Below, one piece after another: positions 11,861 through 38,171 of a stretch of DNA of 64,000 nucleotides. This DNA is from an uncultured Candidatus Bathyarchaeia archaeon (GTDB lineage: Archaea > Thermoproteota > Bathyarchaeia > TCS64): the NCBI GenBank assembly GCA_964529745.1, contig CAZGZR010000001.1:5590-69589 (forward strand). Direction: 5' to 3'. The position numbers and the translations under genes are program-made. The notes under the pieces are model-generated. The model was not told the origin of the DNA, made no database searches, and worked only from the letters and a program-made list of their open reading frames with translations. Position 1 is the stretch's first letter; every line of letters begins with the position of its first letter.

Positions 11861-11995
11861 ACTTTACTAGCTAAGTTTTGAGGGATATTTATCAGATGTT
11901 GAGTAAAAAAATAATACATACCATTCCGGTTGATTTGTAACCGTTGTTCTCAAGTCTACTTCATGAATCCTTTCATGAACATATAACTTAAATGA

Positions 11996-12679
11996 TCATT
12001 TAACGGCTTTAGCCATAATATGGTAATAATAGGGAAATACGCCTAAAATGTGTTTTTCGGGGAACATCTTAACAAATTCAATCCCCGCCTCCTCAAGGAA
12101 TTTTTTCATTTCATTCACCGAGAAATATCTTCTATATGCATATACATCCTCTCCATCACCCGTTTTCCCAGCTGTCTTAATGTAATGTTCTTTTCTACCC
12201 AACATTTCTAGTATCTTTATGGGAATCTCTGAGAAGCATTGAGTTGTAGTAAGAGCAACAAACCCACCGGGCTTTACCACTCGCCCCATCTCGGAAATAA
12301 TTTCTTTGATAACTTCCTCATTTTTTATATGAATGATTACTTGCTCAGCAAAAGCTACATCGCAGGAATTGTCGGGCAATGAGAGGTCCTGGCCTAGCTC
12401 GTTTAAAAGGTCTACTCTGGAATCTTTTACCATGAAATGGTGATATAATTCACTTGGTTCGACAGCATAGTATTTGGATACACCATATTCCTCTAATATG
12501 GCTCGTGCTATTCTTCCTACTCCAGCACCTACATCCAGAACAACATCTCCGTCTTTTATAGGAAGTATTTTAGCGATATCTCGTGCATACGCTCTGCTTT
12601 TCTCTGACATCAATATCTTTGCGTAATCATCAGCAATGCTATCGTGCATCTCCACGCTGTCAAGTAATTTCATATCCAA
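11996..12679 (-). CDS. class I SAM-dependent methyltransferase
   Basis: 227 aa. Motif I VLDVGAGVGRIA, then VEPSEL, then post-II PGGFV. Confidence 0.7.
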   Translation of the reverse strand: MDMKLLDSVEMHDSIADDYAKILMSEKSRAYARDIAKILPIKDGDVVLDVGAGVGRIARAILEEYGVSKYYAVEPSELYHHFMVKDSRVDLLNELGQDLSLPDNSCDVAFAEQVIIHIKNEEVIKEIISEMGRVVKPGGFVALTTTQCFSEIPIKILEMLGRKEHYIKTAGKTGDGEDVYAYRRYFSVNEMKKFLEEAGIEFVKMFPEKHILGVFPYYYHIMAKAVK

Positions 12680-12877
12680 CTAGATGGAGTTTGATTTTAA
12701 GAGTTAAATAATCATGTAGGTACAATCTAAAACACTCAATGATTAACCCTCAATATGGTCGAAAAAATCCGTCTCCACTATCAAAGAGATCTAATAACTG
12801 GTGATATAATATCCAGGTAACTACAGTCTACAAATATTTGTATTCGCTGGTGTTGTGGTGTAATCTCCATTCACTTA

Positions 12878-15829
12878 TTGATATATACATTTGGATGGAA
12901 CTTGGAAATAATGTTGCGGTCGAGAGGCTCGATTAGCAGATTTACGCCATTTTTTTTCTCGCTCATCCTTACTCTTTACTCATACATTGGAATTAAATTT
13001 TGGTTTGTAGACTCACTTCTTATCCCCGTCTTTGTTTTCGCGGCCCCAGGCTTCCTGGTGAGCTACCGGCTTTCTCATGAACTCGATTTGTCTTTGGATG
13101 AGTTTCTAGTTATCACAATAATATTCAGCGGAGTAGTCCTGATGTTTCTCTACCTTGCTCTTACCTGTATGTTTGCCTATGTAGCTCCATACATGGTTTT
13201 TGGGGGCTTGACTTGCTTCCTCTTCGTATTGGGGTTTCTGGTTGACGTTTCAACAGAGACTTTAGGAACCATCGATGATGAGACGATTAAAGGCTTGGGG
13301 GGGCTACTAGCGAGTTATTTTTTAGGTTTTTGGGTTATTTCCTGTTATATGCCCCTGCAATATTGGAGGGGTCCCGATGGGTGGGAGAACATCAATGTTT
13401 TCAGGAAGATTTCTGAGATGGGGTTATCTCCGGTAGAAGCATACAATTTTTTCAGGTGTTACGTTAAGATTCCGAATCCTGGCTTCTATTACTATTTCTC
13501 GGTTTTACATCTGATGACAGGGTTCTCTGTTGAGTCCATCATGCGTTATGGCGGTATGATACAGACGGGGGTGTTCGTCTCGCTGGCTTATATAACCTTC
13601 AAACGAGTAAACGGCCTCCTGTCAGGGTTGTCAGGTGTTTTTCTCCTCGTTCTCAATCCTTACTTTAACCACAGATTCATGGTTCTTCTACGCGAAGAGT
13701 TCAGCCTCTTCTTTTTTTTTACCGGTTTGTTCCTTTATATCTGCAACAGAGAATCTGGAGATTGGTCTTATCCTCTTAGAATAATGGTCATGGGTAGCTT
13801 GTTGGCATCCTGTATGGTATCTCACCCCATGGTACCTGTTTTTTTTATCGGGTTATTGGTATGCCGGATGGGCTATTCTTTCATCGAGAGAAAATTTGAT
13901 GAGATAACCGTCGAATTATACTCTCTCGTCCTCAGCCTGATACTTGTATTACCTTTTCTAAACATAATGTTAGATCCACTTGGCATTTTCATGAATAAAA
14001 TTTCATTGCCATACTTGTTGATTGGCTCATGTTTAGTGATCGTAGTAATCTCATCAATGTATCTTATTTATTATCAAAAAATAGATGTTGAACGTCTTAT
14101 TCCTACGGTACAAAAAGTTATGATCGTCCTCATGTTTTTCCTCCCATTACTAGGAGTAACGGTCAAACCTAATCTAGGCGAATCGTATTCTTTTGGATTC
14201 ATCGATATCGAAGATTTCTCAAAAATTCTTGTCCCCTTGTCAGTAGCTGGGTATTTCCTTCATTCTCTAGGGAGAATGGAGAAAAATATTGTTGGATTGA
14301 ATCTCATCACAGTCATATTGATAGCCTTAAGCTATCTTAGGATCCCCTTGCCTCTGGATCGACTCTCTATTCCACTTATTTGGCTCATGAGTTTCTATGC
14401 TTCCTATCTAGTAAATGCTTCAAAGCAGGCGTCTTTCCATGAAACAGCTTCAATTACACAAGATTCTGAGCTAGTTTCTAACTTGTTAAAACATCGAATG
14501 ACACTGGTTTTCATCTTGATGATATTCGCCGGAGGCGTGCTCGAGCTATCAACTATTACCAGGAAGTTGTCTACCTTCGATGCGTCGTGTGTCGAAGATA
14601 CCAATCTGTTTGTCTCAGAGTTGGAGCCAGGGGAGCTTGTTTTTCCTTACGGTACCGCCGATCATATGCTGTACTATGCAAATATACCGCAGGATAACAT
14701 CGTCGCAGATCTGGAGGTTAAAAATAAGCTTGCACTACTGCTGGACCAAGATTCTATATACGAGATCTCGGAGCTGGTTCAGGAAAGTTATCCTGAAGTC
14801 AACTCCTTGATCTTCTACGTAGATAGCTGGTATGAAAATGATCTCCGCGAAAAACCTTTCTGCGATCTATTGGAGTTATACTTCGAGAAAGCTGTTAGGG
14901 GATGTTTCTCGTCTTACGGGTTAGAAATACCCTTTACCGTCGAGAAACTAAAGTTAAACCAGGTTAGATACATCAAGGATTTCCCCGAAGACCCTCTCTT
15001 CGGCTCACATTGCAATATCACTGCAACAAGTAACATTCTGACCCTACCCGATGAAGAGGCATCTTATAAGTTCATGTTTCTAAGTGCGGATGCTGATGGA
15101 ACAAAGTATATTGGTTTAGCCTCCTCAACAAACGGTCTAGATTGGAACATAGATTACGAGGATAAACTAGGCTATGAACTTGAATCTATAGGCCTCATCG
15201 AACGTGACGATCGATACTATCTATATGCAGGTACTTCCTCCAAGGTCCAAGTTGTTCGGCTTGATAGCAATGACTTACGCAATTGGGGCAACTATACCAT
15301 AGTCATTGATTCTTCATCGAGGGATGAACTGGTTTTCATAGAGTCTCCCCTGGTATGGCAGGAAGAAAGCGGTTTTCGAATGTTATGGTGGGAAACCACG
15401 ATAGGAGACTCCATGATGAATGGAGTCCATTACGCCACCTCGATAGACGGTGCTAATTGGGTTATAGAACATAGGTCTCTGGAATGGGCCTTATTGGATT
15501 CCAGATACAGAGCGAATGAATATGACAAGATACTTCCCTATGACTTGATGCGAATAGGTGAAGGCATTATCATTCTGGCAAGAATGCACAAGGCTGACGG
15601 GTTTTCCCCAAAGAAATGGGTTACGGGCTCAATTACTCTTGAAGATGTAACCTCTAAGGCAGCTGAGGTGCAGGGTTTTGTATACAAGGATCATATTGAA
15701 TCTGAAATGGACTCGATTCATGTGATAAGAGACCTCGACGGTGTTAACCTGAGGTTCATTTACCTTGAATATTGTAGAGGTCGAGTCTACATCGGGGCTG
15801 CCTCCGACCATTATGGTGTGGAAAAATGA
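12878..15829 (+). CDS. large polytopic membrane protein with C-terminal Asp-box beta-propeller (paralog of 8921-11860)
   Basis: 983 aa. Same N-terminal motifs (LSHELDLSLDEF, YWRGPDGWE). C-terminal blades GLASSTNGLDW, HYATSIDGANW (S-x-D-G-x-x-W Asp-box). Confidence 0.6.
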   Translation: MIYTFGWNLEIMLRSRGSISRFTPFFFSLILTLYSYIGIKFWFVDSLLIPVFVFAAPGFLVSYRLSHELDLSLDEFLVITIIFSGVVLMFLYLALTCMFAYVAPYMVFGGLTCFLFVLGFLVDVSTETLGTIDDETIKGLGGLLASYFLGFWVISCYMPLQYWRGPDGWENINVFRKISEMGLSPVEAYNFFRCYVKIPNPGFYYYFSVLHLMTGFSVESIMRYGGMIQTGVFVSLAYITFKRVNGLLSGLSGVFLLVLNPYFNHRFMVLLREEFSLFFFFTGLFLYICNRESGDWSYPLRIMVMGSLLASCMVSHPMVPVFFIGLLVCRMGYSFIERKFDEITVELYSLVLSLILVLPFLNIMLDPLGIFMNKISLPYLLIGSCLVIVVISSMYLIYYQKIDVERLIPTVQKVMIVLMFFLPLLGVTVKPNLGESYSFGFIDIEDFSKILVPLSVAGYFLHSLGRMEKNIVGLNLITVILIALSYLRIPLPLDRLSIPLIWLMSFYASYLVNASKQASFHETASITQDSELVSNLLKHRMTLVFILMIFAGGVLELSTITRKLSTFDASCVEDTNLFVSELEPGELVFPYGTADHMLYYANIPQDNIVADLEVKNKLALLLDQDSIYEISELVQESYPEVNSLIFYVDSWYENDLREKPFCDLLELYFEKAVRGCFSSYGLEIPFTVEKLKLNQVRYIKDFPEDPLFGSHCNITATSNILTLPDEEASYKFMFLSADADGTKYIGLASSTNGLDWNIDYEDKLGYELESIGLIERDDRYYLYAGTSSKVQVVRLDSNDLRNWGNYTIVIDSSSRDELVFIESPLVWQEESGFRMLWWETTIGDSMMNGVHYATSIDGANWVIEHRSLEWALLDSRYRANEYDKILPYDLMRIGEGIIILARMHKADGFSPKKWVTGSITLEDVTSKAAEVQGFVYKDHIESEMDSIHVIRDLDGVNLRFIYLEYCRGRVYIGAASDHYGVEK

Positions 15830-15928
15830 TTTTCAGTACTAAAATAATCGATTAAAGATAAAGGCAATCATTCAGCGTCTTTGTGTGAATACAACCGCAT
15901 CATTTACGTCATCAAATTTAAAATATTA

Positions 15929-16159
15929 TTATATTATGATTTTTCCTCTTTCAAATTGCTTATTGTACCATATCTTTCCACGGGATCTTCTGCTGATCTT
16001 CTTTGGATTCCCTAAGACCGCGAATTGCTTTACCATGCTGAGGGCACGGATTATTATATAACTCGTTACAGATAACACCATCTTTATAGTAGTATTTACT
16101 ATCCTGTGAGAATATACAAAGTCATCAGCTCCAAGTATTTCTCGGATATTGTATGCCAT
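15929..16159 (-). CDS. hypothetical small ORF at the island boundary (may be non-coding)
   Basis: 76-aa ORF in an AT-rich intergenic stretch. No recognisable motif. Confidence 0.15.
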   Translation of the reverse strand: MAYNIREILGADDFVYSHRIVNTTIKMVLSVTSYIIIRALSMVKQFAVLGNPKKISRRSRGKIWYNKQFERGKIII

Positions 16160-17096: not shown

Positions 17097-17172
17097 TGGT
17101 GGAGAGAGGAGGAGTCGAACCTCCACGCATACGCCAATCAAGGCGCCGTTCTCCCAGTTAAACTATCTCTCC
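17097..17172 (-). tRNA. tRNA gene with encoded CCA; anticodon loop reads UUGAUU (probably GAU, Ile) but the anticodon arm is non-canonical
   Basis: Minus strand reads GGAGAGAUAGUUUAACUGGGAGAACGGCGCCUUGAUUGGCGUAUGCGUGGAGGUUCGACUCCUCCUCUCUCCACCA. It has a 7-bp acceptor stem, a D-arm with GG, a T-arm GGAGG/UUCGACU/CCUCC, a 5-nt variable loop, and discriminator A plus CCA. The anticodon stem GCGCC/GGCGU closes only 6 nt. Confidence 0.75.
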
Positions 17173-22619: not shown

Positions 22620-22911
22620 GGATGGGCTTTCAGGTTGGTATCTGTATCCGTGGTATGGAGCCGGGTTCCACCGTCTTTAAACGTGGGTCCGATTGACGCG
22701 GAGACGTGGTTGAGAGAGATAGAGTGGTGATCGATGACCGGGATCACACTATACGCGGTTTCGGTGGCGTCGATGTCCGGCGGTTTATCCGTCAGGACGA
22801 CAGGGTGAGGGGGTTCATCTACAGGGTCATAGAGGACCTGTAGTCGTGGTGCTGGCGTGTGGCTTGGTTCGGGGGGAAACCCTCTTTTACCCCGGTTCCT
22901 CTGGGTGTTTC

Positions 22912-23298
22912 ATGAGATCTTTCATCAAGGTGATGGGTCCGCCTCTCTTGGAGGCCGTGAGGGCGCTGGAGAAGATCGCTGTGGACATGCCGCAGGTCTG
23001 TGTGATGGATGAGGCTATCCTGCTTGATGTCCCCCGTGCCGTGGCGAGGGATATAGGTGAGCCTTTCGAGTATCCTGATTATGTCTCGGATTTCTTCACT
23101 CGTAGGACGGGTGTGAGCGTCAAGACCGAGAGGTGTCACAACATCATCAGCGAGTCGGGTGAGGAGCTGGGGGAGTACGACTTCTTCTTCGAGTGGTTCG
23201 AGGAGCCTAGCTTGGGGCAGCTCAACCAGTTGGTGGAGAAGGTTGACGCGGCTCTGGGGTCCCTGGGGTGTCTGTACTCCATAACGACCAGGAAGTAG
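22912..23298 (+). CDS. hypothetical protein
   Basis: Start moved to the first ATG (MRSFIKVMGPPLLEA). The table ORF begins at a GTG. Acidic C-terminal half. No motif recognised. Confidence 0.35.
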   Translation: MRSFIKVMGPPLLEAVRALEKIAVDMPQVCVMDEAILLDVPRAVARDIGEPFEYPDYVSDFFTRRTGVSVKTERCHNIISESGEELGEYDFFFEWFEEPSLGQLNQLVEKVDAALGSLGCLYSITTRK

Positions 23299-23340
23299 TT
23301 TCTTACCTCTAGTCGCTGGGCGGGTGGAGTCTGCTTTTTC

Positions 23341-23373
23341 CTTATAATTGGTTACTTATTATAAGCGTTTTTT
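23341..23373 (+). terminator. hairpin (8-bp stem CTTATAAT/ATTATAAG, 9-nt loop TGGTTACTT) followed by T6; start of repeat copy 1
   Basis: Seen in sequence. Sits directly after the stop of 22912-23298. A homologous copy with compensatory stem changes lies at 37506-37538. Confidence 0.45.
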
Positions 23374-23530
23374 CGGGTGGGGGTTCAGCGTATGTGTGAG
23401 GCGTGGCTGTGCGGGTGTTTTTGGTTTAGGTGTTGTTGTTTTTCTTTGTGAAGGTGCGTCTTCCGTTGAACGGGGGGGGGGGCAGCTGTTTTTAGTTGGT
23501 TTCATTGTTTTTTGGTTGGTGGTTTCGTGT
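23374..23530 (+). repeat. G+T-rich repeat body, copy 1 (contains a G12 run)
   Basis: Shares GGTTTCATTG(G)TTTTTTGGTT-type segments with 37539-37680. Overlaps the low-complexity C-terminus of the GAF gene on the opposite strand. Confidence 0.4.
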
Positions 23531-24329
23531 GTTTGGGCGGTGAAGGGGTCAGCTTGGCCGTTATGCCGTCGTAGGTCTTCATGGCCTTTATGCCTTCGTC
23601 GGTGATCTTGTATGCGTATCGGGCGGCGGATATCTTTTCTCTTCTGAGGTAGCCCTTGGTGACCAGGTTGTTCACCATCTCCTTGCCGCGTTTCCAGGGC
23701 AGGACCACCCTGTGGATTATCCTGTTGAGTACCGTTTCGCCGTTGTAGGCGGCGACGAGGATGCCGTAGTAGTTGTCCATGGTGGACCGGTTCTTGACGC
23801 TGTAGAGCTCCCACGGCTTGCCTGTCGGCGCCTCTACCCGTACCCTGTGTATGGCTTCCGCGATCTCGTGTGCATACGCCTCGGTCAGCCTCCTGTCCTC
23901 GTCCGTGAAGCGGCCGGGTTGGCGGCACTCCAGGTTGATTGTGCCCAGGGTCTCGCCCCCGTGCATGAGGGGGACGCATAGCTCGGAGAGCATGGTGACG
24001 GCGTCGCGGCCGTCGCCGGGGAAGTAGTCGGGGTCCAGGCGTGTGTCGTTTACGAGCTGGGTCTCCCCGGTCTTGACGGTCCGCGTGTTTATGCTGGGCC
24101 AGTCCAGTTTGAGGTCGATTATCACCCGTTCGCCTATTGTGGTGACGGACTTGAGGGTGTCGCCCTCGATGACCGCCAGGGCGATCTTGTCTGTGGGTAT
24201 GGTGGAGTGGAGCATGGTGGTGGCGAACATGGCCACGTCCTCCAGGATGGTGTACTGGGCAAGCGTGTAACGCATGAAGCTCAGCTTGGCCCCGATATCA
24301 CCCTTCCCGCGTGATATCTCGTGGGACAT
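23502..24329 (-). CDS. GAF domain protein with C-terminal winged-helix DNA-binding domain
   Basis: 275 aa. GAF-like core (…ETQLVNDTRLDPDYFPGDGRDAVTMLSELCVPLMHGGETLGTINLE…). C-terminal wHTH (NNLVTKGYLRREKISAARYAYKITDEG). Confidence 0.6.
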   Translation of the reverse strand: MSHEISRGKGDIGAKLSFMRYTLAQYTILEDVAMFATTMLHSTIPTDKIALAVIEGDTLKSVTTIGERVIIDLKLDWPSINTRTVKTGETQLVNDTRLDPDYFPGDGRDAVTMLSELCVPLMHGGETLGTINLECRQPGRFTDEDRRLTEAYAHEIAEAIHRVRVEAPTGKPWELYSVKNRSTMDNYYGILVAAYNGETVLNRIIHRVVLPWKRGKEMVNNLVTKGYLRREKISAARYAYKITDEGIKAMKTYDGITAKLTPSPPKHTKPPTKKQ

Positions 24330-25333: not shown

Positions 25334-25852
25334 TCACTGGAGAATGGTTTGGAGTATTTGGAGGGTGTTTTCTTCCTCCGCTTTCTGCTTGACCTTTTCG
25401 GTATCGATTTGAGTGTACTCTAGTATCGACTTTACGTCATCCTTGTCCTTGGCAGTCTTAGCCGGGTCTATTGTTGCCCTTATCATCCTCAACTTGGCCA
25501 GTATAAGGGACTCCGGCGTCTGTACGTAGGTTGGCTGGCCCAGCAGGGTGCAGGGCCTCTTCTCCAACCGCTCCCCTGTCAAGATTAAGTCCACCGTGTA
25601 GGGGGAAAGGGTGTCCTGGAGGGTGGCTATGTTGTACCCTGTTTCAAGCGCGTCTCTGAGCCTCTGCTCGTCTACCTGCAGCCGCGTCTCCCGTAGGGCG
25701 TGCACCAGTTTTCCTTGGCCGGCGCCGCGTAGAGAGACTATTATGTCTATGTCCATGGTGGTTCTGGGGGTCCCGTAATAGCTTGCGGCCAGCGCCCCCG
25801 TGAACATGTAGTCTTGCTGAGTCTGGTTGAGCCGCGTTATGAGGCGTCTCAC
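25334..25852 (-). CDS. nucleotidyltransferase-fold protein (minimal NTase, GA...DIDII motif); possible TA component
   Basis: 172 aa, GTG start. GALAASYYGTPRTTMDIDIIV matches the G[SA]x9-13DxD pol-beta NTase motif. Confidence 0.5.
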   Translation of the reverse strand: MRRLITRLNQTQQDYMFTGALAASYYGTPRTTMDIDIIVSLRGAGQGKLVHALRETRLQVDEQRLRDALETGYNIATLQDTLSPYTVDLILTGERLEKRPCTLLGQPTYVQTPESLILAKLRMIRATIDPAKTAKDKDDVKSILEYTQIDTEKVKQKAEEENTLQILQTILQ

Positions 25853-28357: not shown

Positions 28358-30082
28358 TTGCCTAGTTTCGATCTGCTTATCAAGAACGGCACGGTTATCG
28401 ATGGCTCCGGGTCGGCGATGTCTAAGGGCGGTGTCGGTGTCTCCGGGGGCAGGATCGTGGAGACGGGTGACCTCGCGGGTGAGGACGGTGCCACGGTCCT
28501 CGACGCGACGGGTAGGTACGTCGCTCCGGGTTTCATCGACAACCACGCCCACTCGGACTGGACCATCCTAGTCCACCCCACAGGCGACAGCAAGGTGATG
28601 CAGGGCGTTACCACCGAGCTGGGAGGGCTATGCGGCTACGCTGCGGCGCCCATCGACCGCGACGAGTGGTGGAAGCTGCTGTACGTCAGGATGACGGTGG
28701 GGTGGAGCATGCACTACTCGGCCGCCGCCTACAACTCGTGGCCCCTCCCCTACGGCAGGCAGATCGACGTCGATTGGTCGTCCCTAGGCGAGTACCTGGA
28801 TAGGTTGGAGAAGACTGGGCTGGGGCTCAACTACGGGATGCTGTTCGGCCACGGGGCCGTCAGGTACTACGTCATGGGGCTGGAGGCCAGGAGGGCTGAG
28901 AGGCGTGAGCTGGACGACATGAAGGAGGTGGCCAGGCAGGCCATGGAGGACGGCGGCTTCGGCATGTCCGCGGGGCTGTCCGGGTGCCCGGGGTGCTGGG
29001 CCGACACCGGTGAGCTCGTGGAGCTGTGTAGGGTCGTGGCGGGCTACGGCGGCGTCTACATGCCTCACATGAGGAACTCGTACCTCAGGTCGTCGGTCGA
29101 GGAGACCATCGAGATCGCCGAGGGGTCGGGTGTGCGCACCTGCATGTCCCACACCCGCCTCAACCCCGAGACGAGGAGGCTGGTGGACGAGGCGAGGGCG
29201 AGGGGCGTCGATATATCGTTTGACATGTACCCGTATCCGGGGTCCATCGCGGGGAACATAGTCTACATGCTCCCCCACTGGCTCAGCAGGCGCAGGGAGG
29301 AGGGCTTCGAGTGGATAGTGGAGCGGTTCAGGGACCCCGAGGTCCGCAGAAGGTTCGTCGAGGAGGATTACCCCGAGTGGCGCAGCATACAGGCCAGCGT
29401 GCCGGGTAAGCCACGGCATCAATGGGACGCGGAGGAGCTGGAGCCGTCGTGGTCCAAGATGCAGGTCCAGCAGGTGTGGACGGCCGACAACAAGAGGTAC
29501 GTCGGCATGACGTTCAGCGAGATCGCGGAGAGCAGGGGTGTGGACCCTTGGACGGCCTGGTTCGACATGATGGTGGAGGAGGGAGGCTACCTCAGGTGGC
29601 TCAACTTCAGGGGCACGTCCTACGAAGACATGTACAGTCCCATCTTCGCCGAGCAGCTGAAGGTGCCATACGTCTCCATCGAGTCCGACGCCCCCATCGA
29701 GTCGCCCCGAGGCGTCACGGCCACCTCGGCCGACCCCCGGGCCTACGGCACGTTCCCTCTGGTCCTAGGAGAGTACGTGAGGGAGAGGGGGCTCCTGTCG
29801 TGGGAGGACGCCGTCATGAAGATGACGAGTAACCCTGCAGCGACGATGGGCCTCACAGACAGGGGGCTCCTCAGGGAGGGTTACTGGGCCGACATAGTCA
29901 TCTTCGACCCGGCGACGATCTCCCACAGAGCCAACTTCCGTAACTGCTTTGAGCTCTCACAGGGCATCAACCACGACGTGTACCCCGTCGGCATTGACTA
30001 CACGATAGTCAACGGCGTCATCGTCGTAGAGAAGGGGATGTTAACCGGAGAAAGGCCGGGGCATGTGTTAAGGCACAGATAA
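28358..30082 (+). CDS. N-acyl-D-amino-acid deacylase (D-aminoacylase) family amidohydrolase
   Basis: 574 aa. N-terminus LLIKNGTVIDGSG...APGFIDNHAHSD, with the amidohydrolase HxH motif. Confidence 0.8.
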   Translation: MPSFDLLIKNGTVIDGSGSAMSKGGVGVSGGRIVETGDLAGEDGATVLDATGRYVAPGFIDNHAHSDWTILVHPTGDSKVMQGVTTELGGLCGYAAAPIDRDEWWKLLYVRMTVGWSMHYSAAAYNSWPLPYGRQIDVDWSSLGEYLDRLEKTGLGLNYGMLFGHGAVRYYVMGLEARRAERRELDDMKEVARQAMEDGGFGMSAGLSGCPGCWADTGELVELCRVVAGYGGVYMPHMRNSYLRSSVEETIEIAEGSGVRTCMSHTRLNPETRRLVDEARARGVDISFDMYPYPGSIAGNIVYMLPHWLSRRREEGFEWIVERFRDPEVRRRFVEEDYPEWRSIQASVPGKPRHQWDAEELEPSWSKMQVQQVWTADNKRYVGMTFSEIAESRGVDPWTAWFDMMVEEGGYLRWLNFRGTSYEDMYSPIFAEQLKVPYVSIESDAPIESPRGVTATSADPRAYGTFPLVLGEYVRERGLLSWEDAVMKMTSNPAATMGLTDRGLLREGYWADIVIFDPATISHRANFRNCFELSQGINHDVYPVGIDYTIVNGVIVVEKGMLTGERPGHVLRHR

Positions 30083-30216
30083 CGGGGAAAATAGGGGTTT
30101 TATTTATTCTCCCTTTAATATGATGCATGAGGTGGCTCCAGTTTGCCTGGATTTCTCAGCTACGGGTACGTTGTTAACGATGACATACTCTATACCTTTC
30201 GGCTTTACCCTGCGGA

Positions 30217-30638
30217 TTAGAATAAGTAGTGTACCAACAGATCGAGTCTGCCACGCTTTATCAGGTGCATCCCAGAGTGCCTCATGACCTCCCTTATCCT
30301 GGCTCTCATTGATGGCTCGTAGCAGTGGATGTGACAGTTTTTGCAGGAAGGCTTGGGGTCCAAGGGGCAGCGTTCCCGTCTCTCTGTGGCATAGGAGAGA
30401 AGCTCAGCGCATTCTGGGCACAGCCCCAAGGTCGAGCCATCCTCGTGGCTCGTTCCTTGAGCGCCCTATGTTTGGTTTCGCAGTAGATCCTGATGAACCG
30501 GTTTAGGGTCTCTATGTCCTTGCTTAATGCGCTTCGATCCATGGCTATTCGGGTTGAGGGGCGGGTGATAAAATTGTTCACAGGGGACCTCGGTGGCTCT
30601 GTCGCTTCATGTGTGACTTTGTGGAGAGGAGGTCGCAA
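30217..30638 (-). pseudogene. nitrous-oxide-stimulated-promoter (YgbA) family gene split by a frameshift
   Basis: The N-terminal piece (...IETLNRFIRIYCETKH) is in the frame of ORF 30306-30638. The C-terminal piece (GLCPECAELLSYATERRERCPLDPKPSCKNCHIHCYEPSMRARIREVMRHSGMHLIKRG) is in the frame of ORF 30217-30429. The frame switch is at about 30440-30470. Confidence 0.45.
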
Positions 30639-30845
30639 TAGATTCAGGAGAGATTGCTATCTATTTCGGTGTCTGCCTCTCCTTGTGGGAGGGCTGTATC
30701 ATTGTTTATAAAGTTGAGGTAAACCGGTTCACTCGGCTTAGCTATGTACGCTATATGGGGCGTGCCGTGTCTATGACATGGTACCTAATTTTATTCATAT
30801 TGAGGAACATAACACTCATAAACTGTTTGTACGGTAATGTACAGT

Positions 30846-31022
30846 ATGCCTAGGAAGGGATTCAGGTCTATAACGGTACGAGAAGAGATCTACGACGAAC
30901 TCATGCAGCAGTACACGGAGAACAGGGAGGAGCTTCTCAAGCAGGGGATCACCAGCTTCTCAGGCTACGTGACGAGGTTCCTCTACGACGCCTTGGAACG
31001 GGTCGCCGAACAGACTAACTGA
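30846..31022 (+). CDS. small ribbon-helix-helix-like protein (hypothetical)
   Basis: MPRKGFRSITVREEIYDELMQ resembles a CopG/RHH N-terminal strand-helix. Confidence 0.3.
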   Translation: MPRKGFRSITVREEIYDELMQQYTENREELLKQGITSFSGYVTRFLYDALERVAEQTN

Positions 31023-31164
31023 CAGCCTCCTCTATCTGGTCTATATTTTCGCGGTGGAGGCGGGCTGAGACGGCTTTAGCCAAGACCATCACTCAGTATG
31101 TATCTGTTCTACGCTGGACATGAAAAGGATAGACATAGTTTACGTACGCGTGCCTTTATCAGAT

Positions 31165-31608
31165 TTATATGAGTCTCAATATGTCTGATTCCTTCGCCTT
31201 CTCGTAGAACTTTCTGTCTGATGTGTAGACTTCGATTCCCATTAGTTCACCGAGGGCGAGGTAGCATGAGTCGTAGACCGTTGTATCGTAGAGGTACGCG
31301 TCTTCGATGGATTGTTGGAGGAGTTCTCTCCCAGGGTTTATCAGGTCGATCTGTAGGTCGATGAGGTCGGACAGGGCTTGCGCTGCTTTCTCGTCGTCGA
31401 AGTCTGGCTTGTATCTGAGGGCGTTCGCCAGCTCGTAGAGGAGGAGATCGGGGGCCGATAGAATGGTGGTTCCTTCTATGTGTTCCTCTCTCAGTTTTAG
31501 GGCGGCTTGGGTTCCTTCTTCCTCGGAGAGCCACTTGACGGCGACGGAGGCGTCTACTACCGCTTCCGTTTGTCTCGCCATCTCCGTATCTCCTCGGCTC
31601 CGGACCAC
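31165..31608 (-). CDS. vapC: PIN-domain ribonuclease toxin VapC
   Basis: AVVDASVAVKWL, the PIN N-terminal acidic motif. Partner antitoxin immediately upstream, overlapping. Confidence 0.7.
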   Translation of the reverse strand: MVRSRGDTEMARQTEAVVDASVAVKWLSEEEGTQAALKLREEHIEGTTILSAPDLLLYELANALRYKPDFDDEKAAQALSDLIDLQIDLINPGRELLQQSIEDAYLYDTTVYDSCYLALGELMGIEVYTSDRKFYEKAKESDILRLI

Positions 31609-31823
31609 TTAATCTCGCTTTTGTTTCTAAGCGCGTCCATGTCTTCGGCTGCCTTTCGCATGCGTTCTTCGTCTCTTTGTCTTGTCTGTCTCTTTGAGGC
31701 TACCCAGAGCCTGAAGGCTTCGGTCGCGGCTTCGCTTACCTTCATTCCGTGGCGAATGGCTTCGGCCTTGAGGTTTCTGTAGGCATTCTCGTCTAGGCCC
31801 TTGATGCTGACGCTCATACGCAT
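31557..31823 (-). CDS. vapB: VapB-type antitoxin (RHH/Arc-like)
   Basis: MSVSIKGLDENAYRNLKAEAIRHGMKVSEAATEAFRLWV, a ribbon-helix-helix fold. Overlaps the vapC start. Confidence 0.65.
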   Translation of the reverse strand: MRMSVSIKGLDENAYRNLKAEAIRHGMKVSEAATEAFRLWVASKRQTRQRDEERMRKAAEDMDALRNKSEIKWSGAEEIRRWRDKRKR

Positions 31824-32188
31824 TTTCCTAGGTTTCCATAATTATATACTTTTCTAACTTTTCCATCTCTTAATATACAAAGAGAGCCTAAAGCATCCCG
31901 AGCAGCGGGCTCTAGCTTCTATGTTTACTGTGTCTTAGGACGAGTCTTTCAACTAGCTCGCTGACTGTTAGCCCCTCTTTCTCGGCTTCTTGCTCTAGCC
32001 TCCGGTATGTGTCTTCTCGCACCCAGATCCGAGGCAAGCTTGGCCACCCGGTCTTGGATAGTGTTAGTGTCATTTAAAGGAGGCGTATGTACCGGTACCT
32101 AGGAGAGATATGAAAATGCCGTACAGATTAGCTTAAAGGCAGGTAAGGTGTCTCGGTAAGCCTTGAACGCCGGTGTTTTAGGAATTTC

Positions 32189-33397
32189 TTAGATTATACC
32201 CGGTTTCTGGTGGATTTCTTTCATCGCCGAGGCTACCTGGGCGGCGAGGACTTCTAAGAGGTAGTGGTCGAATACGGTGAAGGCGTCGAGCTCGAGGCTC
32301 TCTATGTTCAGCACGGCCACGGTCTCCTCCTCCACGGTCACGGGGACGGACAGCTCCGAGAGGGAGTCCGTTGAGCCCTTCATGAAGCCAGGGTCCAGCC
32401 TTGTGTCCGGGACGTACTGGGTTTCCCCCTTCTTTGCGGCCTTCACAGTGATGCCTGCCCCGCTCAGAGGCATCTCTCTGACGTTGTCAAGAAGGGGGGC
32501 TCCCCTCGTGCCGAGGGTTTGGAGGGTGGAGCCCCGGACCGCGTGGAACGAGGCGTACGTGAAGCCGAGGATCTTCTCCATGATATCCAGGGTGGTCTCG
32601 CCGATCTCCTCGACGTTCTCGGCGGTCTTCAGGAGGGTGGCGTGGTCGTGCAGGGCCTGCAGCAGGTTCTCTTTCTTCACCCTGTCCGTAATGTCTCGCA
32701 CGAAGGCGAGGAGGGCGGGTTCCCCGTGGTATCTGATGAAGCTTATGGACGCCTCGAACCTTCTGTCGAGCCTCTCGCCGAAGCCGTACAGGTAGTCGTA
32801 CGTGTAGGGGTGGCGACCCTCCCGTTCCCTGGCTTCTATGCTCTCGAATATCTTTTGCTCCGCCGGGTCCAGGAAGTCCACGGCGGAGGCCCCGATGATC
32901 TCTGATCTGTCTTCTACGTCGAAGATGTGGAGGGCGGCTGGGTTGACGTACTCGATGGTGCCGTCGACTATGATGAGTATGGCGTCGCGGCTGTTCTCCA
33001 CGATGTCCTTGTAGAGTCTGCGCTGCCAGCGGATCTCCACGGCGTCCTCCATGGTCCTGGCGAGGATGTTGAAGTGGTCTATGCCTCTTTCTCTTCTGAC
33101 CACGGAGTCTACTCCGCTCTGGTATGCCTGTTCCACCAGCTCCTCGTCTATTCGCGAGGTGTAGAGGATGAAGGGCGTGTCTCGGGTCTTCTTTACCTCC
33201 TCTCCCAGGAGTATGCCGTCGGTGTCGGGGAGAGCGTACTCAGAGACGACGCAATCGTAGTCGTCTGAGCCTAGTCTCTCTAGGGCCGTTTCTCTTGAGG
33301 ACGCCAGCTCGGTCTCTATCTGGGGGTCTATTATGTTGAGGTTTATTTTTATGAATCTCAGTGCCTCGTGGTCGCTACCTACTAGTAGTGCCTTCAC
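32189..33397 (-). CDS. response-regulator receiver domain protein with PAS and GAF domains
   Basis: 402 aa. N-terminal REC (DCVVSEYALPDTDG; phospho-acceptor Asp context). Central PAS. C-terminal GAF. Confidence 0.75.
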   Translation of the reverse strand: MKALLVGSDHEALRFIKINLNIIDPQIETELASSRETALERLGSDDYDCVVSEYALPDTDGILLGEEVKKTRDTPFILYTSRIDEELVEQAYQSGVDSVVRRERGIDHFNILARTMEDAVEIRWQRRLYKDIVENSRDAILIIVDGTIEYVNPAALHIFDVEDRSEIIGASAVDFLDPAEQKIFESIEAREREGRHPYTYDYLYGFGERLDRRFEASISFIRYHGEPALLAFVRDITDRVKKENLLQALHDHATLLKTAENVEEIGETTLDIMEKILGFTYASFHAVRGSTLQTLGTRGAPLLDNVREMPLSGAGITVKAAKKGETQYVPDTRLDPGFMKGSTDSLSELSVPVTVEEETVAVLNIESLELDAFTVFDHYLLEVLAAQVASAMKEIHQKPGII

Positions 33398-33545
33398 CTC
33401 GCGCTCACCGCCGCAGGCTATGAGTTGTACTGGTTTTACTCTCGTAATAATGTTTTTAATTTTAGTAAACCTGAGCGCCGAGAATCATTTTTTATTCTTC
33501 GTATTCGACAGGTTTTTTAATTAAAAACTGTAGATAATTAGTTCT

Positions 33546-33911
33546 ATGCCGCTTGAACTCGACACGGGGAGAGATCACTTGGAGATGTTCTTCAAGGACT
33601 GGCAGGTGGAGGCTCTACGCTACCTCTGGAGCATAAGACCTGGTGACGCCAACAGCAGGGCAGTCTGGGAAAACGTTAACCAGAGCTTCCAGGGCAGCAT
33701 CAGCAGGGCCAGCGTAATCAACTTCCTCAATGCTATGGTGGATGAAGGTCTGCTTACCTATACGGAGAGAACGGGCAAAGGCGGGCATCGAAGATTGTAC
33801 ACCATAGCTTTCGACGAGCAGGGATTCAAGACTCATGTTGCAGGACTCTTGATCAAAAAGTTGATCGAGGAATTCCCACAGGAAACCAGGAAAGTAATCC
33901 AAAGTATATAA
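33546..33911 (+). CDS. winged-helix DNA-binding protein (hypothetical regulator)
   Basis: 121 aa. ISRASVINFLNAMVDEGLLTYTERTGKGGHRRLYTI has the look of a wHTH recognition helix and wing. Confidence 0.4.
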   Translation: MPLELDTGRDHLEMFFKDWQVEALRYLWSIRPGDANSRAVWENVNQSFQGSISRASVINFLNAMVDEGLLTYTERTGKGGHRRLYTIAFDEQGFKTHVAGLLIKKLIEEFPQETRKVIQSI

Positions 33912-34076
33912 ACTAAAAATAGCCACAGCCTCTCTAATTATTTCTGTAGAGAAGACGCTTTAGATCGGCGTCCACACACAATATTACATTTAAATCTCTC
34001 TGAATCCTAGAAAATTAGGGATCATACACTCTCACCCAGTTGGGCACTGTTCGGCGCCTCCTTATGTTAATTCTTC

Positions 34077-34088
34077 AGCTTTATTATT
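34077..34088 (+). promoter_or_regulatory. TATA-like element AGCTTTATTATT about 25-30 nt upstream of the MEDLRG ATG (leaderless transcript likely)
   Basis: The same element occurs at the same spacing upstream of the paralog at 37166-37177. Confidence 0.4.
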
Positions 34089-34109
34089 CAAGATACCATG
34101 GATGCTATC

Positions 34110-34394
34110 ATGGAGGATCTACGAGGGAAGGCTCTCAAGGCCTATGAGGCGCTCTTCGACAACCAGGAAACCGTTGAGATCGATGGCATGGTCTATCACC
34201 TTGAGCACACTTCGATCCAGGAGCTGCGTAAATTCAGGGTGGAAGGCTATAACTTCATCGAGCAGAATCCGGACAAGGGCAGCAGGTGGGGTGAGTTGGC
34301 GAAAGAGGGGCACCAGATTATGTGGGTGATGAGAGGCAGAAAGTATCTCGCCCAGGTACGTGATGGTGAGTTCTTTGATTTCAGGAAACAATAG
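34110..34394 (+). CDS. small conserved hypothetical protein, duplicated family (copy 1)
   Basis: MEDLRGKALKAYEALF...VEIDGMVYHLEHTS...FIEQNPDKGSRWGELAKEGHQIMWVMRGRKYLAQVRDGEFFDF. About 70% identical to 37199-37486. Start chosen at the second ATG because of TATA spacing and paralog alignment. Confidence 0.5.
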   Translation: MEDLRGKALKAYEALFDNQETVEIDGMVYHLEHTSIQELRKFRVEGYNFIEQNPDKGSRWGELAKEGHQIMWVMRGRKYLAQVRDGEFFDFRKQ

Positions 34395-34511
34395 AAAGTG
34401 TTTTTTCGAAAATATGCTAATAATGTTAAATTTTAATCTCTAAATTTTACTAAGAAATCGTAATCAGGCTAATTACCGGTCTGAAAATCCTTTTTAAATA
34501 TAAAGGGGTGT

Positions 34512-35165
34512 TTATTTTGAGAACTTTTTTTCTATTATGTATATTTTATCTGATTGACGATCTATTTGCTTCGAATTAACGTATAGATAAGCGTATATTG
34601 TATATTGGCCTTCAATCTGCGGTATGAAAGTGATTACATCCTTTTCTATACCTACCTTTTGTATGGTTATTTTCTCTTGTCCTAGATTGTTGAAGACCCC
34701 CTCTGGGGTATTTACCCAATAATCAATATTTATTGATGAATTAGGTTTCAAGCCTTTAATGGTTGTCTCAACTTTTATTGATTGACCCACTTCTTGTTTC
34801 GCTTCTCCAAGTATTAGCAGGTTTATGATCTCTGCTGCTTCTTCGCCTACCTTTATTCTTAGTGCCGGTGATTCCCATGAGAATCTCTCATCGTCCATGT
34901 ACCCAAAGATTCTGATGTATAGTCTGGCGGAACCATGTGCTGATATGCTAAAGGGTACGATGATGGTCTCTTTTGGGTCGATGTTTTTTACCCATTTTAG
35001 AGAGTCTTTGACGTTTATGAGCCGTTGGTCTAGTGAGGCTAGTCCAACTTCGAGTGTTTCAATTTCTTTGTTTCCATGGTTTTTGATATTCAGGTTTATC
35101 CGACTCTTTCCCTTTTTTATTTCCATGGGAGCGAGTTTAACGGATATCGGTAATCTTCTCATCAT
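34512..35165 (-). CDS. two-domain beta-rich protein (paralog B), function unknown
   Basis: 217 aa, AT-rich. Aligns over its full length with 35570-36205 (shared ...LY..I.GY.....W.SP...I.VG and ...G.....I.F.P...G...I.AYLY...). Confidence 0.5.
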   Translation of the reverse strand: MMRRLPISVKLAPMEIKKGKSRINLNIKNHGNKEIETLEVGLASLDQRLINVKDSLKWVKNIDPKETIIVPFSISAHGSARLYIRIFGYMDDERFSWESPALRIKVGEEAAEIINLLILGEAKQEVGQSIKVETTIKGLKPNSSINIDYWVNTPEGVFNNLGQEKITIQKVGIEKDVITFIPQIEGQYTIYAYLYVNSKQIDRQSDKIYIIEKKFSK

Positions 35166-35485
35166 CCTTGTTTTTCCACCTTTTTTTCTTGGGTAAGGTT
35201 GAGTGAGTTTGCTATTTTCTCTCTATCGAAGCCTATTATCTTGGTATCGTCTACAACGATTATAGGAAAGGCGATGCTTATCCCTCCTTGGGGGATGTCC
35301 CAGCCGAAGATGCCGGCTGCATCCTGTCTGTGTTCTGGATCGGCTTTATCTATGTCGAGGTACCTGAACTTTACATCCCTTTCTTTTAGGTACGCTTTTG
35401 CTTCATCACAGGCGTGGCAATAGCTCAAAGAGTAAACTGAGATTTCTTTATCGTCTTTTTCTCCATCAACGGTTACCCAGCTCAT
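35162..35485 (-). CDS. glutaredoxin-like protein (CxxC = CHAC)
   Basis: 107 aa. VYSLSYCHACDEAKAYLKERDVKFRYLDID, a thioredoxin-fold Grx/NrdH-like motif. Confidence 0.7.
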   Translation of the reverse strand: MSWVTVDGEKDDKEISVYSLSYCHACDEAKAYLKERDVKFRYLDIDKADPEHRQDAAGIFGWDIPQGGISIAFPIIVVDDTKIIGFDREKIANSLNLTQEKKVEKQG

Positions 35486-35569
35486 ACCAGATTTTAAGAA
35501 GGGTGTTTTAAAAATCTAAAGCCATGGTTTTTATATCTTTAATTTTTTTACCAAAAAAAAATTGGGGAT

Positions 35570-36205
35570 TTATTCTACCCAGATGACGTCGGAGTCGGTT
35601 CCTATGTAACGATGGTCGTCGTAGAGATAGGCGTGGATCTCGTGTCTTCCCGACTCGTTAGGTGTGAACTCTATGGAGCTTTTCTTTACTTCTCCGGGGC
35701 CTAGTTTCTCGATCTTCGTTTCTCCCAGTTTCTCGAAGCTTGACGGTGAGTCGTGCCAGAAGGTTATCAAGAAGTTATCTCCGCCGGTTACCCCCTCCAC
35801 AACGGCTTCTGCTTCGAGGGTTTCTCCGCCGACGGCGTATGGGTGGGTTAGCGCGAATACGTTTCTGAGCTTCGCGGTGGTTATGCCTACGTAGATCTCG
35901 ATGTTCGGTGACGTCCAGAAGAAGTAGATTCCTTCTCGGTAGCCTGATACCGTTACATAGAGCTTTGTGGTTTGGTTTGCGTAGATCTGGAAGGGGAAGA
36001 ATCGTTCGTCTCCGGGTTTGATCTCGGAGGTGTATGTTCCTGTTCCCCAGACGTCGATGAAGGTCTGGTTCCTGGAGTACAGCTTTATGTCTAGTTGGGT
36101 TAGCGTGTCGGTGCTCACGTTTTTTAGGTGTACGGATACCCAGTGTGTTCCTGTCTTGAGTTCACTTGGGGTGATGTCAAATTCGAAGGGTCTCTTGATC
36201 CTCAT
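35570..36205 (-). CDS. two-domain beta-rich protein (paralog A), function unknown
   Basis: 211 aa. No signal peptide. Paralog of 34512-35165. Confidence 0.5.
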   Translation of the reverse strand: MRIKRPFEFDITPSELKTGTHWVSVHLKNVSTDTLTQLDIKLYSRNQTFIDVWGTGTYTSEIKPGDERFFPFQIYANQTTKLYVTVSGYREGIYFFWTSPNIEIYVGITTAKLRNVFALTHPYAVGGETLEAEAVVEGVTGGDNFLITFWHDSPSSFEKLGETKIEKLGPGEVKKSSIEFTPNESGRHEIHAYLYDDHRYIGTDSDVIWVE

Positions 36206-36414
36206 TTTTCATCATTTATTTCTGAAATAACATGTTATTTAAACCTGAAAAACGAGTTAAGATGAAATTAATTTTTTACACTATTTTATAATAATATGAT
36301 ATGTGGGCTATGCCTTTAATGGAGATTTTAGAGGTCTCGTGGTGACCTTGGTTGGCTGTGTTCTTGCTCAATAAAGCTTATTTCTACATATGTATATGTA
36401 GATGTAGATGAGTT

Positions 36415-36657
36415 TTGACGTCTAAAACGATATCGGTGTCGGAGGACGCCTACGAGCTCCTCAAGAAGATGAAGCTCAAGGGAGAGAGCTTCACGGAGAC
36501 CATCAGGAGGCTCGCCAGACGCCGTAGGCTCGCTGACTGCGCCGGGCTGTGGTCGGACGCCTCCGAGGAGGAGATGGAGGCTTACTGGGGCGGTATATCC
36601 GAGTTGAGGAGGAGGGCCGCGGAGTCCATGGAGATGCGCCGCGTTGAAGGTAGTTGA
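36415..36657 (+). CDS. vapB: VapB-type antitoxin
   Basis: MTSKTISVSEDAYELLKKMKLKGESFTETIRRL, the UPF0330/VapB antitoxin pattern. Confidence 0.6.
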   Translation: MTSKTISVSEDAYELLKKMKLKGESFTETIRRLARRRRLADCAGLWSDASEEEMEAYWGGISELRRRAAESMEMRRVEGS

Positions 36658-37042
36658 CACGACGTTCCTGGTTTGCCTCCTCCGCGAAGATTCATCGACC
36701 CTCGGCAAGGCTGAGGAGCTGGACGGTGAGGGCGGCGCCGCCACTACCGTCGTAAACGTCTATGAGGCATGTTATGGGGTTTACAGGGCCATGTCGGATC
36801 CGCCGAGGAGGATGGAGGCCTTAGAGCGTCTCGTCGCGAACTTGGAGGTGTTGGATCTGGACTATGAGGCCGCTGTGAGGGCCGCCGAGATATCGGGGAC
36901 GCTGGACAAGGAGGGGAGGGGGATCGATCCCTTCGACTCGCTCATCGCGGGGATCGCGCTCACCAGCGGAGCCGAGGCTCTGGTCACCAGAAACGTTACC
37001 CACTTCGAGAGGGTGCAGGGTCTGAAGGTAGAAGAACATTAA
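36644..37042 (+). CDS. vapC: PIN-domain toxin VapC
   Basis: TTG start. VVDTTFLV N-terminal and FDSLIAGIAL C-terminal PIN motifs. Overlaps vapB by 14 nt. Confidence 0.7.
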   Translation: MKVVDTTFLVCLLREDSSTLGKAEELDGEGGAATTVVNVYEACYGVYRAMSDPPRRMEALERLVANLEVLDLDYEAAVRAAEISGTLDKEGRGIDPFDSLIAGIALTSGAEALVTRNVTHFERVQGLKVEEH

Positions 37043-37165
37043 ACGAAGGCCGCTCATCCATAGCTTTGGCTCCGCCCAGGCATGGTACCCCGTTTCACCT
37101 GGTTTTCTGGGTGATTGTGGGGTGAAAGACTCATAGGCTTTCATTCATCCTTGGAAGAAGTCTTT

Positions 37166-37177
37166 AGCTTTATTATC
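37166..37177 (+). promoter_or_regulatory. TATA-like element AGCTTTATTATC upstream of paralog copy 2
   Basis: Same sequence and spacing as 34077-34088. Confidence 0.4.
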
Positions 37178-37198
37178 CGAGATTCCGTGGATCCTGTT

Positions 37199-37486: not shown

Positions 37487-37505
37487 AGGCGAGTTTGCGT
37501 TTTTC

Positions 37506-37538
37506 CTTGTAACTGGTTACTTGTTACAAGCGTTTTTT
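37506..37538 (+). terminator. hairpin (stem CTTGTAAC/GTTACAAG, loop TGGTTACTT) followed by T6; start of repeat copy 2
   Basis: Identical loop to 23341-23373. Two compensatory base-pair changes in the stem. Confidence 0.45.
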
Positions 37539-38165: not shown

Positions 38166-38171
38166 GTCCTG

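Follow-up and report, generated by a model that had tools for sequence, protein, structure and literature searches.

What are two small hairpins with the same loop doing behind unrelated genes of one archaeal genome, and why have their stems changed in step? The question is raised by a stretch of 64,000 nucleotides (the window; contig CAZGZR010000001.1) from an uncultured Candidatus Bathyarchaeia archaeon, in which an earlier note, made from the sequence alone, had drawn attention to an intergenic repeat consisting of a hairpin, a run of T and a long G+T-rich tail. The answer that we favor, and to which we give an even chance on a comparison of the two copies with their relatives in other genomes, is a dispersed plus-strand RNA module for transcript 3′ ends, made up of a hairpin, a U-tract and back-up terminators, with a loop that is probably read by a factor. 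The alignments described below reveal co-variation in the stem, together with a loop and, behind it, a GCG-T run that do not change. The parts of the two copies, and the genes ahead of them, are as follows.

22846-23298, plus strand: gene upstream of copy 1, 150 amino acids, no Pfam match; its TAG stop lies 43 nt ahead of the hairpin
23327-23340, plus strand: 5′ flank of copy 1, semi-conserved GAGTCTGC, then T5 and C (alignment A5)
23341-23365, plus strand: copy 1 hairpin, CTTATAAT (23341-23348), loop TGGTTACTT (23349-23357) and ATTATAAG (23358-23365), with an 8-bp stem and a 9-nt loop
23366-23373, plus strand: CG spacer and T6 of copy 1, the T6 at 23368-23373
37115-37486, plus strand: gene upstream of copy 2, 123 amino acids, no Pfam match; its stop lies 20 nt ahead of the hairpin
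37491-37505, plus strand: 5′ flank of copy 2, GAGTTTGCG, then T5 and C (alignment A5)
37506-37530, plus strand: copy 2 hairpin, CTTGTAAC (37506-37513), loop TGGTTACTT (37514-37522) and GTTACAAG (37523-37530)
37531-37538, plus strand: CG spacer and T6 of copy 2, the T6 at 37533-37538

Both hairpins, their identical 9-nt loop and the two compensated stem pairs can be read directly from the sequence, as the earlier note had described them. The copies lie in direct orientation, 14.2 kb apart, and share the core TTTTTCC-hairpin-GCGTTTTTTC, with a C following the T6 in each; a repeat finder reports them as a 50-nt direct repeat of 84% identity (23335-23384 and 37500-37549, family D10). From the upstream T5 to the T6, a span of 41 nt, they differ at four positions only, which amount to a change of A-T to G-C at pair 4 and of T-A to C-G at pair 8, and by a simple count the probability that four substitutions in 41 positions form two compensated stem pairs is 3e-5 to 3e-4. 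A degenerate 25-mer finds two matches in the window against 0.00 expected (100 shuffles), and a chance origin of the two-copy match is excluded. The genes ahead of the two copies, which the earlier note had called unrelated, have no BLASTP similarity to each other; the T6 lies 70 nt from the upstream stop codon in copy 1 and 47 nt in copy 2. Copy 2 is confirmed by an independent Logan assembly of run SRR14802572, which is 100% identical to window positions 29711-42543.

Contigs of related genomes were retrieved through homologues of the GAF regulator that neighbors copy 1, so that the contexts sampled are biased by a single gene family, and about 160 kb of Bathyarchaeia DNA was examined for members; those homologues of the regulator that carry a name belong to Candidatus Bathyarchaeota. 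Five more distinct members are present beyond copies 1 and 2, giving seven sequence types, and non-orthologous copies number about four in roughly 125 kb of lineage DNA. The loci that bear members are listed here with the protein identity of their GAF regulator to that of the window.

L041 and L042 (93-95%): copy 1 unchanged, with GGGGGGAG in place of a G11 tract in the tail
L059 (79%): stem as in copy 1, loop TGGTTACCT
L060 and L061 (77%): GTTGTAAC-TGGTTACTT-GTTATAAG, about 350 nt from the GAF stop and behind another upstream gene
L088 (69%): no copy adjacent to the GAF gene; one member elsewhere, CTTATCGT...ACGATAAG
L089 (76%): none on the 3′ side of the GAF gene; two members (L089a and L089b), TCTAGGGT...ACCCTAAG and CTTGTAAT...GTTATAAG

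No member was found in about 6 kb of unique sequence from the P0013 lineage, whose regulator is 75% identical. Membership was defined by sequence features without use of the 5′ arm of the stem, and the census pattern that matches the true members is TGGTTACYT-N5-AAGCGTTTT, with 7 nt between the loop and GCG and another 7 between CC and the loop. Every AAGCGTTTTT 10-mer in the 160 kb is a member, and in each the 5′ arm pairs at 7-8 of its 8 positions; by comparison, three loop-only matches within genes pair at 2-3 arm positions, and 81 chance loop-plus-flank matches in unrelated DNA, which served as a control, pair at 0-6 (median 3). The covariance-model search for further copies that the earlier note had proposed was carried out with model R1 on the window and all of the fetched relatives' loci; members score 60-77 bits and the rest at most 15 bits, and because the scores split members from everything else in this way we take the window to hold exactly two copies. 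Two candidates for a third, an inverted repeat at 41570-41596 (I8) and a segment at 8888-8940 that reaches 15 bits with R1, look like chance.

Different genomes have at least two subtypes in common, one with a TTATAAT stem and one with a TTGTAAC stem. No match in Rfam 15 lies around either copy up to E=10, only a tRNA passing the gathering threshold in the window; scans of viral sequences gave 15 pattern matches, none of them a member by the covariance model, and the copy 2 element had no BLAST match among plasmids or phages. To judge from these sequence comparisons, copies 1 and 2 belong to a small family of Bathyarchaeia intergenic elements that is lineage-restricted and has not been described before.

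Alignment of eight sequences (A2) reveals those parts that are invariant: loop positions 1-7 and 9 (TGGTTAC(T/C)T), the AAG at the base of the stem, the GCG, and five T. The T run behind the GCG is T5-7 in all eight, and members are flanked by GAGTYKGC-Tn-CC on the 5′ side, with an upstream T run of 3 to 6, and by GCG-Tn on the 3′ side; the sequence that separates the stop codon from the element shows no conservation. In the 8-bp helix 96.9% of the cells form standard pairs, and five of the eight pairs have changed on both sides. Neither value is reached in any of 500 shuffles, and sliding the partner arm by 1-3 columns lowers pairing to 27-56% with 0-2 double-sided pairs. RNAalifold, applied to a wider alignment, predicts this same 8-bp helix and no other, and gives no support to an outer helix around the hairpin that we considered. 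The earlier note had read the two-copy pattern as a mark of selection on hairpin structure and had allowed that it might dissolve once more copies were aligned; on alignment it has strengthened, and both the selection and the membership of a family are borne out.

The helix also carries some information as to strand. There are six cells that depart from Watson-Crick pairing, four of which are G·T on the plus strand (A·C on the other strand), with one C·A and one G·G. As plus-strand RNA all seven sequence types fold, and as minus-strand RNA L060 and L089a do not. The RNA of copy 1 folds at -3.2 to -3.9 kcal/mol at 37 C and that of copy 2 at -8.1 kcal/mol.

Behind the hairpin and T run lies the G+T-rich sequence to which the earlier note had referred, and which extends over the following segments in the window.

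23374-23549, plus strand: copy 1 tail, with T runs of at least five at 23418, 23439, 23489 and 23508 and no A run of at least five
37539-37700, plus strand: copy 2 tail, with T runs at 37579, 37632 and 37654 and no A runs

Nowhere in the window but in these tails does G+T reach 78% over 100 nt (window mean 0.51, standard deviation 0.08), and five members in all, these two included, have such tails, of 150-200 nt and about 80% G+T (75-93% per 40 nt). A 220-nt tail taken from copy 1 contains 17 A, 28 C, 86 G and 89 T, so that its GC skew is +0.51 and its AT skew -0.68. On the plus strand the tails carry 4-5 runs of five or more T and not a single A run of that length; among the 57 genes of the window defined by open reading frames (ORFs), 13 have a T run of at least five within 150 nt downstream, and four such runs are found only at the two element loci. 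Tail composition could, speculatively, reflect selection for U-tracts and G-rich pausing, or equally the mutational signature of a chronically single-stranded non-template strand.

The homology of the tails varies with the pair compared, with z-scores of 12.7 for copy 1 and L059, 11.5 for copy 2 and L060, 5.1 for copies 1 and 2 (weak), and 3.7 for copy 1 and L060. In the case of copy 2 and L060 the similarity starts sharply about 10 nt before the hairpin and extends for about 200 nt, with unrelated genes on both sides, and the element is thus a discrete unit in different contexts. The identity between the tails of the window and L059 (75% aligned) is no evidence of constraint, since the coding DNA of the two is about 85% identical. 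A tail motif that the earlier note had given as shared by both copies is real, in that 23488-23520 and 37558-37590 are 88% identical over 33 nt (family D4); its wording holds less exactly, copy 1 reading GGTTTCATTGTTTTTTGG, one base off copy 2. TTGGTT is enriched only in the copy 2 tail (7 observed, 1.5 expected), and we rejected the idea that the loop motif TGGTT is a tail repeat, as the enrichment is confined to that tail and the tandem structure is weak. A small ORF in the tail was likewise rejected, as the TTG at 23348 is CTG in copy 2 and no frame survives the one-base indels that distinguish copy 2 from L060.

A further G+T-rich 3′ flank lies at 38766-38875 (minus strand), where the 100 nt past the stop of an MFS transporter gene (38888-40519, minus strand) are about 78% G+T on the coding strand, with no hairpin and no T run. 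Such flanks may be a wider habit of this genome.

Among the readings offered by the earlier note, a structured 3′ untranslated region or terminator fits best, by the plus-strand G·T wobbles, the T5-7 run, and the presence of a co-oriented gene 20-146 nt ahead of the element. Such a gene is there in five of the six independent contexts, namely those of copy 1 (counted together with its orthologues), copy 2, L060, L089a and L089b; four of the five lie between convergent units, the partner of L089b being a tRNA. As we picture it, transcription of the upstream gene would produce the 8-bp hairpin and, two bases on, a U5-7 tract, at which the archaeal RNA polymerase would terminate; the hairpin, now at the 3′ terminus, would shield the transcript end, and its invariant 9-nt loop, UGGUUAC(U/C)U, would probably be recognized by a protein or other factor. 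In most members the G-skewed tail of 150-200 nt, with 3-4 more T runs, would act as a one-way fail-safe terminator, and the opposite strand, having no T run, would leave convergent transcription running. Transcription of the element, termination at the T run, a factor that reads the loop and the role of the tail are each things that we infer.

Archaeal termination is thought to need a U-tract alone, aided by aCPSF1/FttA, and the element resembles such oligo-U terminators in its T runs of at least five on the non-template strand past a gene and in the serial T runs of its tail; copies 1 and 2 both have, downstream of a gene, the non-template-strand run of 4-5 or more T by which such sites are known. 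Archaeal terminators are described as U-tracts of 4-7 U (PMC8716108), and those mapped in four species have no preceding hairpin and no conserved sequence (PMC8716108). The element differs in having a co-varying, fixed-loop hairpin ahead of its first conserved T run. Because archaeal termination needs no hairpin, and ordinary terminators have no conserved loop, the hairpin would have an added role, for example in 3′-end protection or in recognition by a factor.

The element can also be compared with the intrinsic (Rho-independent) terminators of bacteria. The likeness is a hairpin of 7-8 bp with U5-7 within 2 nt of it, behind a co-oriented gene; the U-tract begins 0-2 nt behind the stem as it does in bacteria, with a CG spacer and T5-7 in all eight aligned members. 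However, the stem of the element is weak and mostly A/U, with a 9-nt loop, and those of bacterial terminators are stable and G+C-rich, with 5-14 bp and a loop of 3-8 nt. Bacterial terminators also share structure only, whereas the loop and flanks of the element are conserved in sequence across loci and genomes, and its host is archaeal, with a polymerase that does not need a hairpin (PMC8716108). A terminator scan of the window did not report the element hairpins.

An analogy in function is the short 3′ stem-loop of eukaryotic histone mRNAs, in which a conserved loop and flanks are read by a dedicated protein, the stem-loop binding protein (SLBP), which directs 3′-end formation. The analogy is one of function only, as there is no sequence relation, the sizes of stem and loop are different, and a protein that binds the element is hypothetical.

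Several observations weigh against a 3′-end module. The L088 element has no co-oriented gene ahead of it, its intergenic region being a divergent one, and L089a and L089b are without a G+T-rich tail. The hairpin is weak (-3.2 to -7.4 kcal/mol at 37 C), half of the members being unfolded at 60 C, and the 4 to 1 asymmetry of the wobbles lacks statistical significance. Termination in archaea requires no hairpin (PMC8716108), which leaves the hairpin and its invariant loop unexplained by termination alone. Lastly, the occurrence of a unit of about 200 nt between unrelated genes in two genomes suggests a unit that moves or duplicates more than it does a terminator tied to a particular gene.

It is this last point that leads to the principal rival, in which the element acts at the DNA level in the manner of repetitive extragenic palindromic (REP) sequences: the single-stranded hairpin would be the substrate of a structure-specific enzyme that copies or moves the 200-nt unit, either an HUH/Y1 transposase (of the RAYT or IS200/IS605 type) or a loop-nicking rolling-circle Rep, and any terminator activity would be a side effect. 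We think this unlikely, although less so than any other rival. A co-varying stem with a fixed loop and foot is in keeping with the action of structure-specific DNA enzymes, and DNA hairpins tolerate G·T pairs too. The homology of copy 2 and L060, with its sharp start and unrelated neighbors, fits a moving unit, as does the L088 copy, which has no upstream gene to terminate and abuts a 5′-truncated MurJ-like gene. That copy lies between the MurJ-like ORF, on the other strand, and a co-oriented gene of 380 amino acids 250 nt downstream. The ORF itself (7588-8391 of L088, plus strand) starts about 100 nt from the member, on the other strand from it, and covers only profile positions 242-433 of 451, its 5′ half being missing, which suggests a rearrangement breakpoint at the element.

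Set against these points, no transposase, HUH or Rep gene is present among the 38 window ORFs that were scanned against Pfam, and there is no GTAG/CGTC tag, terminal inverted repeat, inverted pair of the REPIN type or recognizable target duplication. The density is low, at two copies in 64 kb, and the sharing of the TTATAAT and TTGTAAC subtypes between genomes indicates copies that are old and retained, not recently amplified. The invariant T run and the missing A runs are strand-specific and have no obvious role in transposition.

The element resembles REP and REPIN sequences, which are short extragenic palindromes with several copies, and as many as tens to hundreds, per genome, often at gene 3′ ends, with a capacity to act as terminators or mRNA stabilizers and found as units in unrelated contexts; the differences are that the element has neither the tag nor inverted doublets, that no RAYT gene is in view, that its density is low and that its stem is A/T-rich. 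REP/RAYT systems have been reported chiefly in bacteria (PMC2817692, PMC3733652). A MITE, or miniature transposable element with inverted repeats, is a poor match, as the unit common to copy 2 and L060 ends without an inverted repeat or flanking duplication; the earlier note's miniature mobile element, taken more broadly, may still prove right.

The origins of rolling-circle replicons also have hairpins in which a variable complementary stem carries a conserved nonanucleotide loop, and the likeness lies in a conserved 9-nt loop containing TTAC. The element differs in being chromosomal and multi-copy and in being kept at orthologous positions, no Rep gene is present among the window ORFs scanned, and its loop is unlike the NANTATTAC-type consensus.

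The earlier note had also suggested a small non-coding RNA, which could take the form of a short plus-strand hairpin RNA or of a C+A-rich minus-strand RNA of about 200 nt ending in the hairpin. It is consistent with such an RNA that the discrete unit of about 200 nt is conserved whole in two pairs, copy 2 with L060 and copy 1 with L059, that the minus strand has no T runs and could be transcribed from end to end, and that the L088 copy stands apart from any upstream gene. But by reading of the sequences there is no conserved sequence like a TATA box or B-recognition element (BRE) on either side, and as no promoter was found a free-standing small RNA is without support. We considered the copy 1 stem as a promoter in its own right; its TATA-like sequence is TTGTAAC, TTATCGT or CTAGGGT in other members, and this too was rejected. 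Transcription of the plus strand would meet the 4-5 T runs in the tail, and on the minus strand the hairpin is disrupted in L060 and L089a and has no terminator behind it. RNAalifold gives no structure beyond the hairpin, and Rfam no match. A separate small RNA is on balance improbable.

Marginally less probable again is a double-stranded palindromic operator for a dimeric DNA-binding protein, for example the GAF-winged-helix-turn-helix (wHTH) regulator next to copy 1; the earlier note had named a dyad protein site as the alternative to RNA structure, and of that statement the part concerning selection on the hairpin has stood and the protein site has not fared well. The site does have dyad symmetry, and with the loop TGGTTACCT of L059 and L089b, 11 of 12 positions of the 25-mer are symmetric; moreover four lineages have a GAF-wHTH gene with a member no more than 500 nt away (on the 3′ side of the gene in the window, L059 and L060, and on its 5′ side in L089). 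That proximity is in part ascertainment, however, because all of the loci were fetched through GAF homologues, and copy 2, L088 and L089b do not adjoin such a regulator. The commoner loop, TGGTTACTT, breaks the inner symmetry, the site is at a gene 3′ end and not at a promoter in three lineages, and the conserved T run is left unexplained. What most disfavors a plain dyad site is that the arms differ at five of eight positions yet stay complementary, where a dimer that reads bases would hold a fixed half-site.

It is very improbable that the copies are relics of neutral duplication whose symmetry is kept by templated mutation of a quasi-palindrome and not by selection: template switching in quasi-palindromes can copy a change from arm to arm in bacteria, and a divergence of only about 15% at the DNA level makes conservation between the window and L059 weak evidence, but the loop (8 of 9 positions), AAG, GCG and T5 are invariant across paralogues and across lineages with GAF proteins 69-76% identical in which the stems have changed at five pairs, the spacer between stop and element is unconserved, and G·T intermediates persist uncorrected. 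Finally, a dif/Xer site, an origin recognition box, an integron attC site, a C/D or H/ACA RNA and a K-turn presumably do not apply, as the spacing, the copy pattern or the consensus that we take each to have does not fit.

The genes around the two copies add some context. That upstream of copy 1 has orthologues in L041 and L042 (99% identity) and in L059 (72%). That upstream of copy 2 has a paralogue at about 34050-34391, of about 120 amino acids and no known family, which is 70% identical to it in amino acids and 81% in DNA over 300 nt; this paralogue is in a low-GC stretch and ends in a plain T6 with no hairpin element behind it, and its partner at 37115-37486 has copy 2 behind it. On the far side of copy 1, and in part within its tail, are the following features.

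23472-23482, plus strand: G11 homopolymer within the copy 1 tail, 20 nt past the GAF stop, non-coding
23502-24329, minus strand: GAF and winged-HTH regulator (Pfam GAF_2, GAF, HTH_45), convergent with copy 1; stop codon at 23502-23504
23505-23549, minus strand: C-terminal extension of the GAF regulator, its last 15 codons, TPSPPKHTKPPTKKQ, read from the antisense of the last 45 nt of the copy 1 tail

The earlier note had given the homopolymer as G12 at about 23472-23483; it is one base shorter. The corresponding position reads GGGGGGAG in L041 and L042 and GGGCTTG in L059, and since these relatives are without the tract we regard it as strain-specific and outside the family. The proposal that it is prone to slippage is weakly supported, as the tract is non-coding and absent from relatives.

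The overlap of the element with a Pro/Lys/Thr-rich C-terminus of the GAF regulator was correctly noted. Most GAF-wHTH homologues are 262 amino acids long and end in ...EKLxx, and extensions of 11-17 residues, rich in Pro, Lys and Thr, occur only in those lineages in which a tail abuts the gene (the window, P0001, P0002 and P0006); they vary in length and sequence among close relatives (TPSPPKHTKPPTKKQ, TPPPPQHTRNHQPKNNKTN, TASPPQPTRPSHP). As judged from these comparisons the extension results from translation that continues into the tail's antisense, and is lineage-specific and poorly conserved. It provides an example of the recruitment of intergenic low-complexity DNA, here tail antisense, as a disordered protein C-terminus.

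We considered whether copies 1 and 2 bound a 14-kb island, and rejected this because L059 retains part of the gene order (GAF, ECH, amidohydrolase, PAS-GAF), which speaks for a region of ordinary chromosome. The 14 kb between and just beyond the copies are rich in toxin-antitoxin-type genes, namely an AbiEii-like nucleotidyltransferase, a PIN protein, a VapB/VapC pair, and a nucleotidyltransferase with a 109-aa partner (25334-25852, 31165-31608, 36415-37042 and 37836-38504). Downstream, at 44045-51099, is a heterodisulfide reductase-like cluster with a ferredoxin-like protein and a Fer4_20/Pyr_redox_2 protein, in which the ORFs at 44530-48873 look equivalent to the CCG-domain and large FAD/4Fe-4S genes of L060; as those adjoin the GAF locus in L060, gene order has been reshuffled between the genomes.

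Farther upstream, positions 5000-16000 form a low-GC island (27-43% GC, with 55-63% around it) that contains three GT4 glycosyltransferases, two methyltransferases and two ORFs of about 980 amino acids with no Pfam match (8921-11860, minus strand, and 12878-15829, plus strand), and that ends about 1 kb before a tRNA gene (17097-17172, minus strand); it may be a horizontally acquired surface-glycan island. For that tRNA, and for one in L089 (12062-12134, plus strand), ARAGORN reports 'tRNA-???' with a two-base anticodon (ga) at position 34. The window tRNA is normal in Rfam (51.6 bits), and the call may reflect an unusual anticodon loop or an artefact of the tool.

What the family means for Bathyarchaeia depends on which of the leading readings holds. 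In its most ambitious form, which we put forward tentatively and do not expect to be right, the element would be either a dedicated sequence-specific mRNA 3′-end signal, in which a lineage-specific factor reads the hairpin loop and is coupled to the U-tract and to a G-skewed, R-loop-prone downstream zone that enforces one-way termination, or alternatively the first archaeal REP/RAYT-like system. If the former were true, the hairpin and G-skewed zone would parallel, in archaea, the way in which eukaryotes place a G-rich pause site behind a signal; if the element is REP-like, it would extend REP biology to archaea. The finding would gain in significance should the loop prove to be a dedicated recognition signal, or a cognate mobilizing enzyme come to light. 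The element provides a precise motif that can be searched for in metatranscriptomes, and AAGCGTTTTT together with the loop is a clean marker of this lineage. If the module works as we propose, it would add a sequence-specific layer of 3′-end formation or RNA protection in an uncultured and globally abundant lineage.

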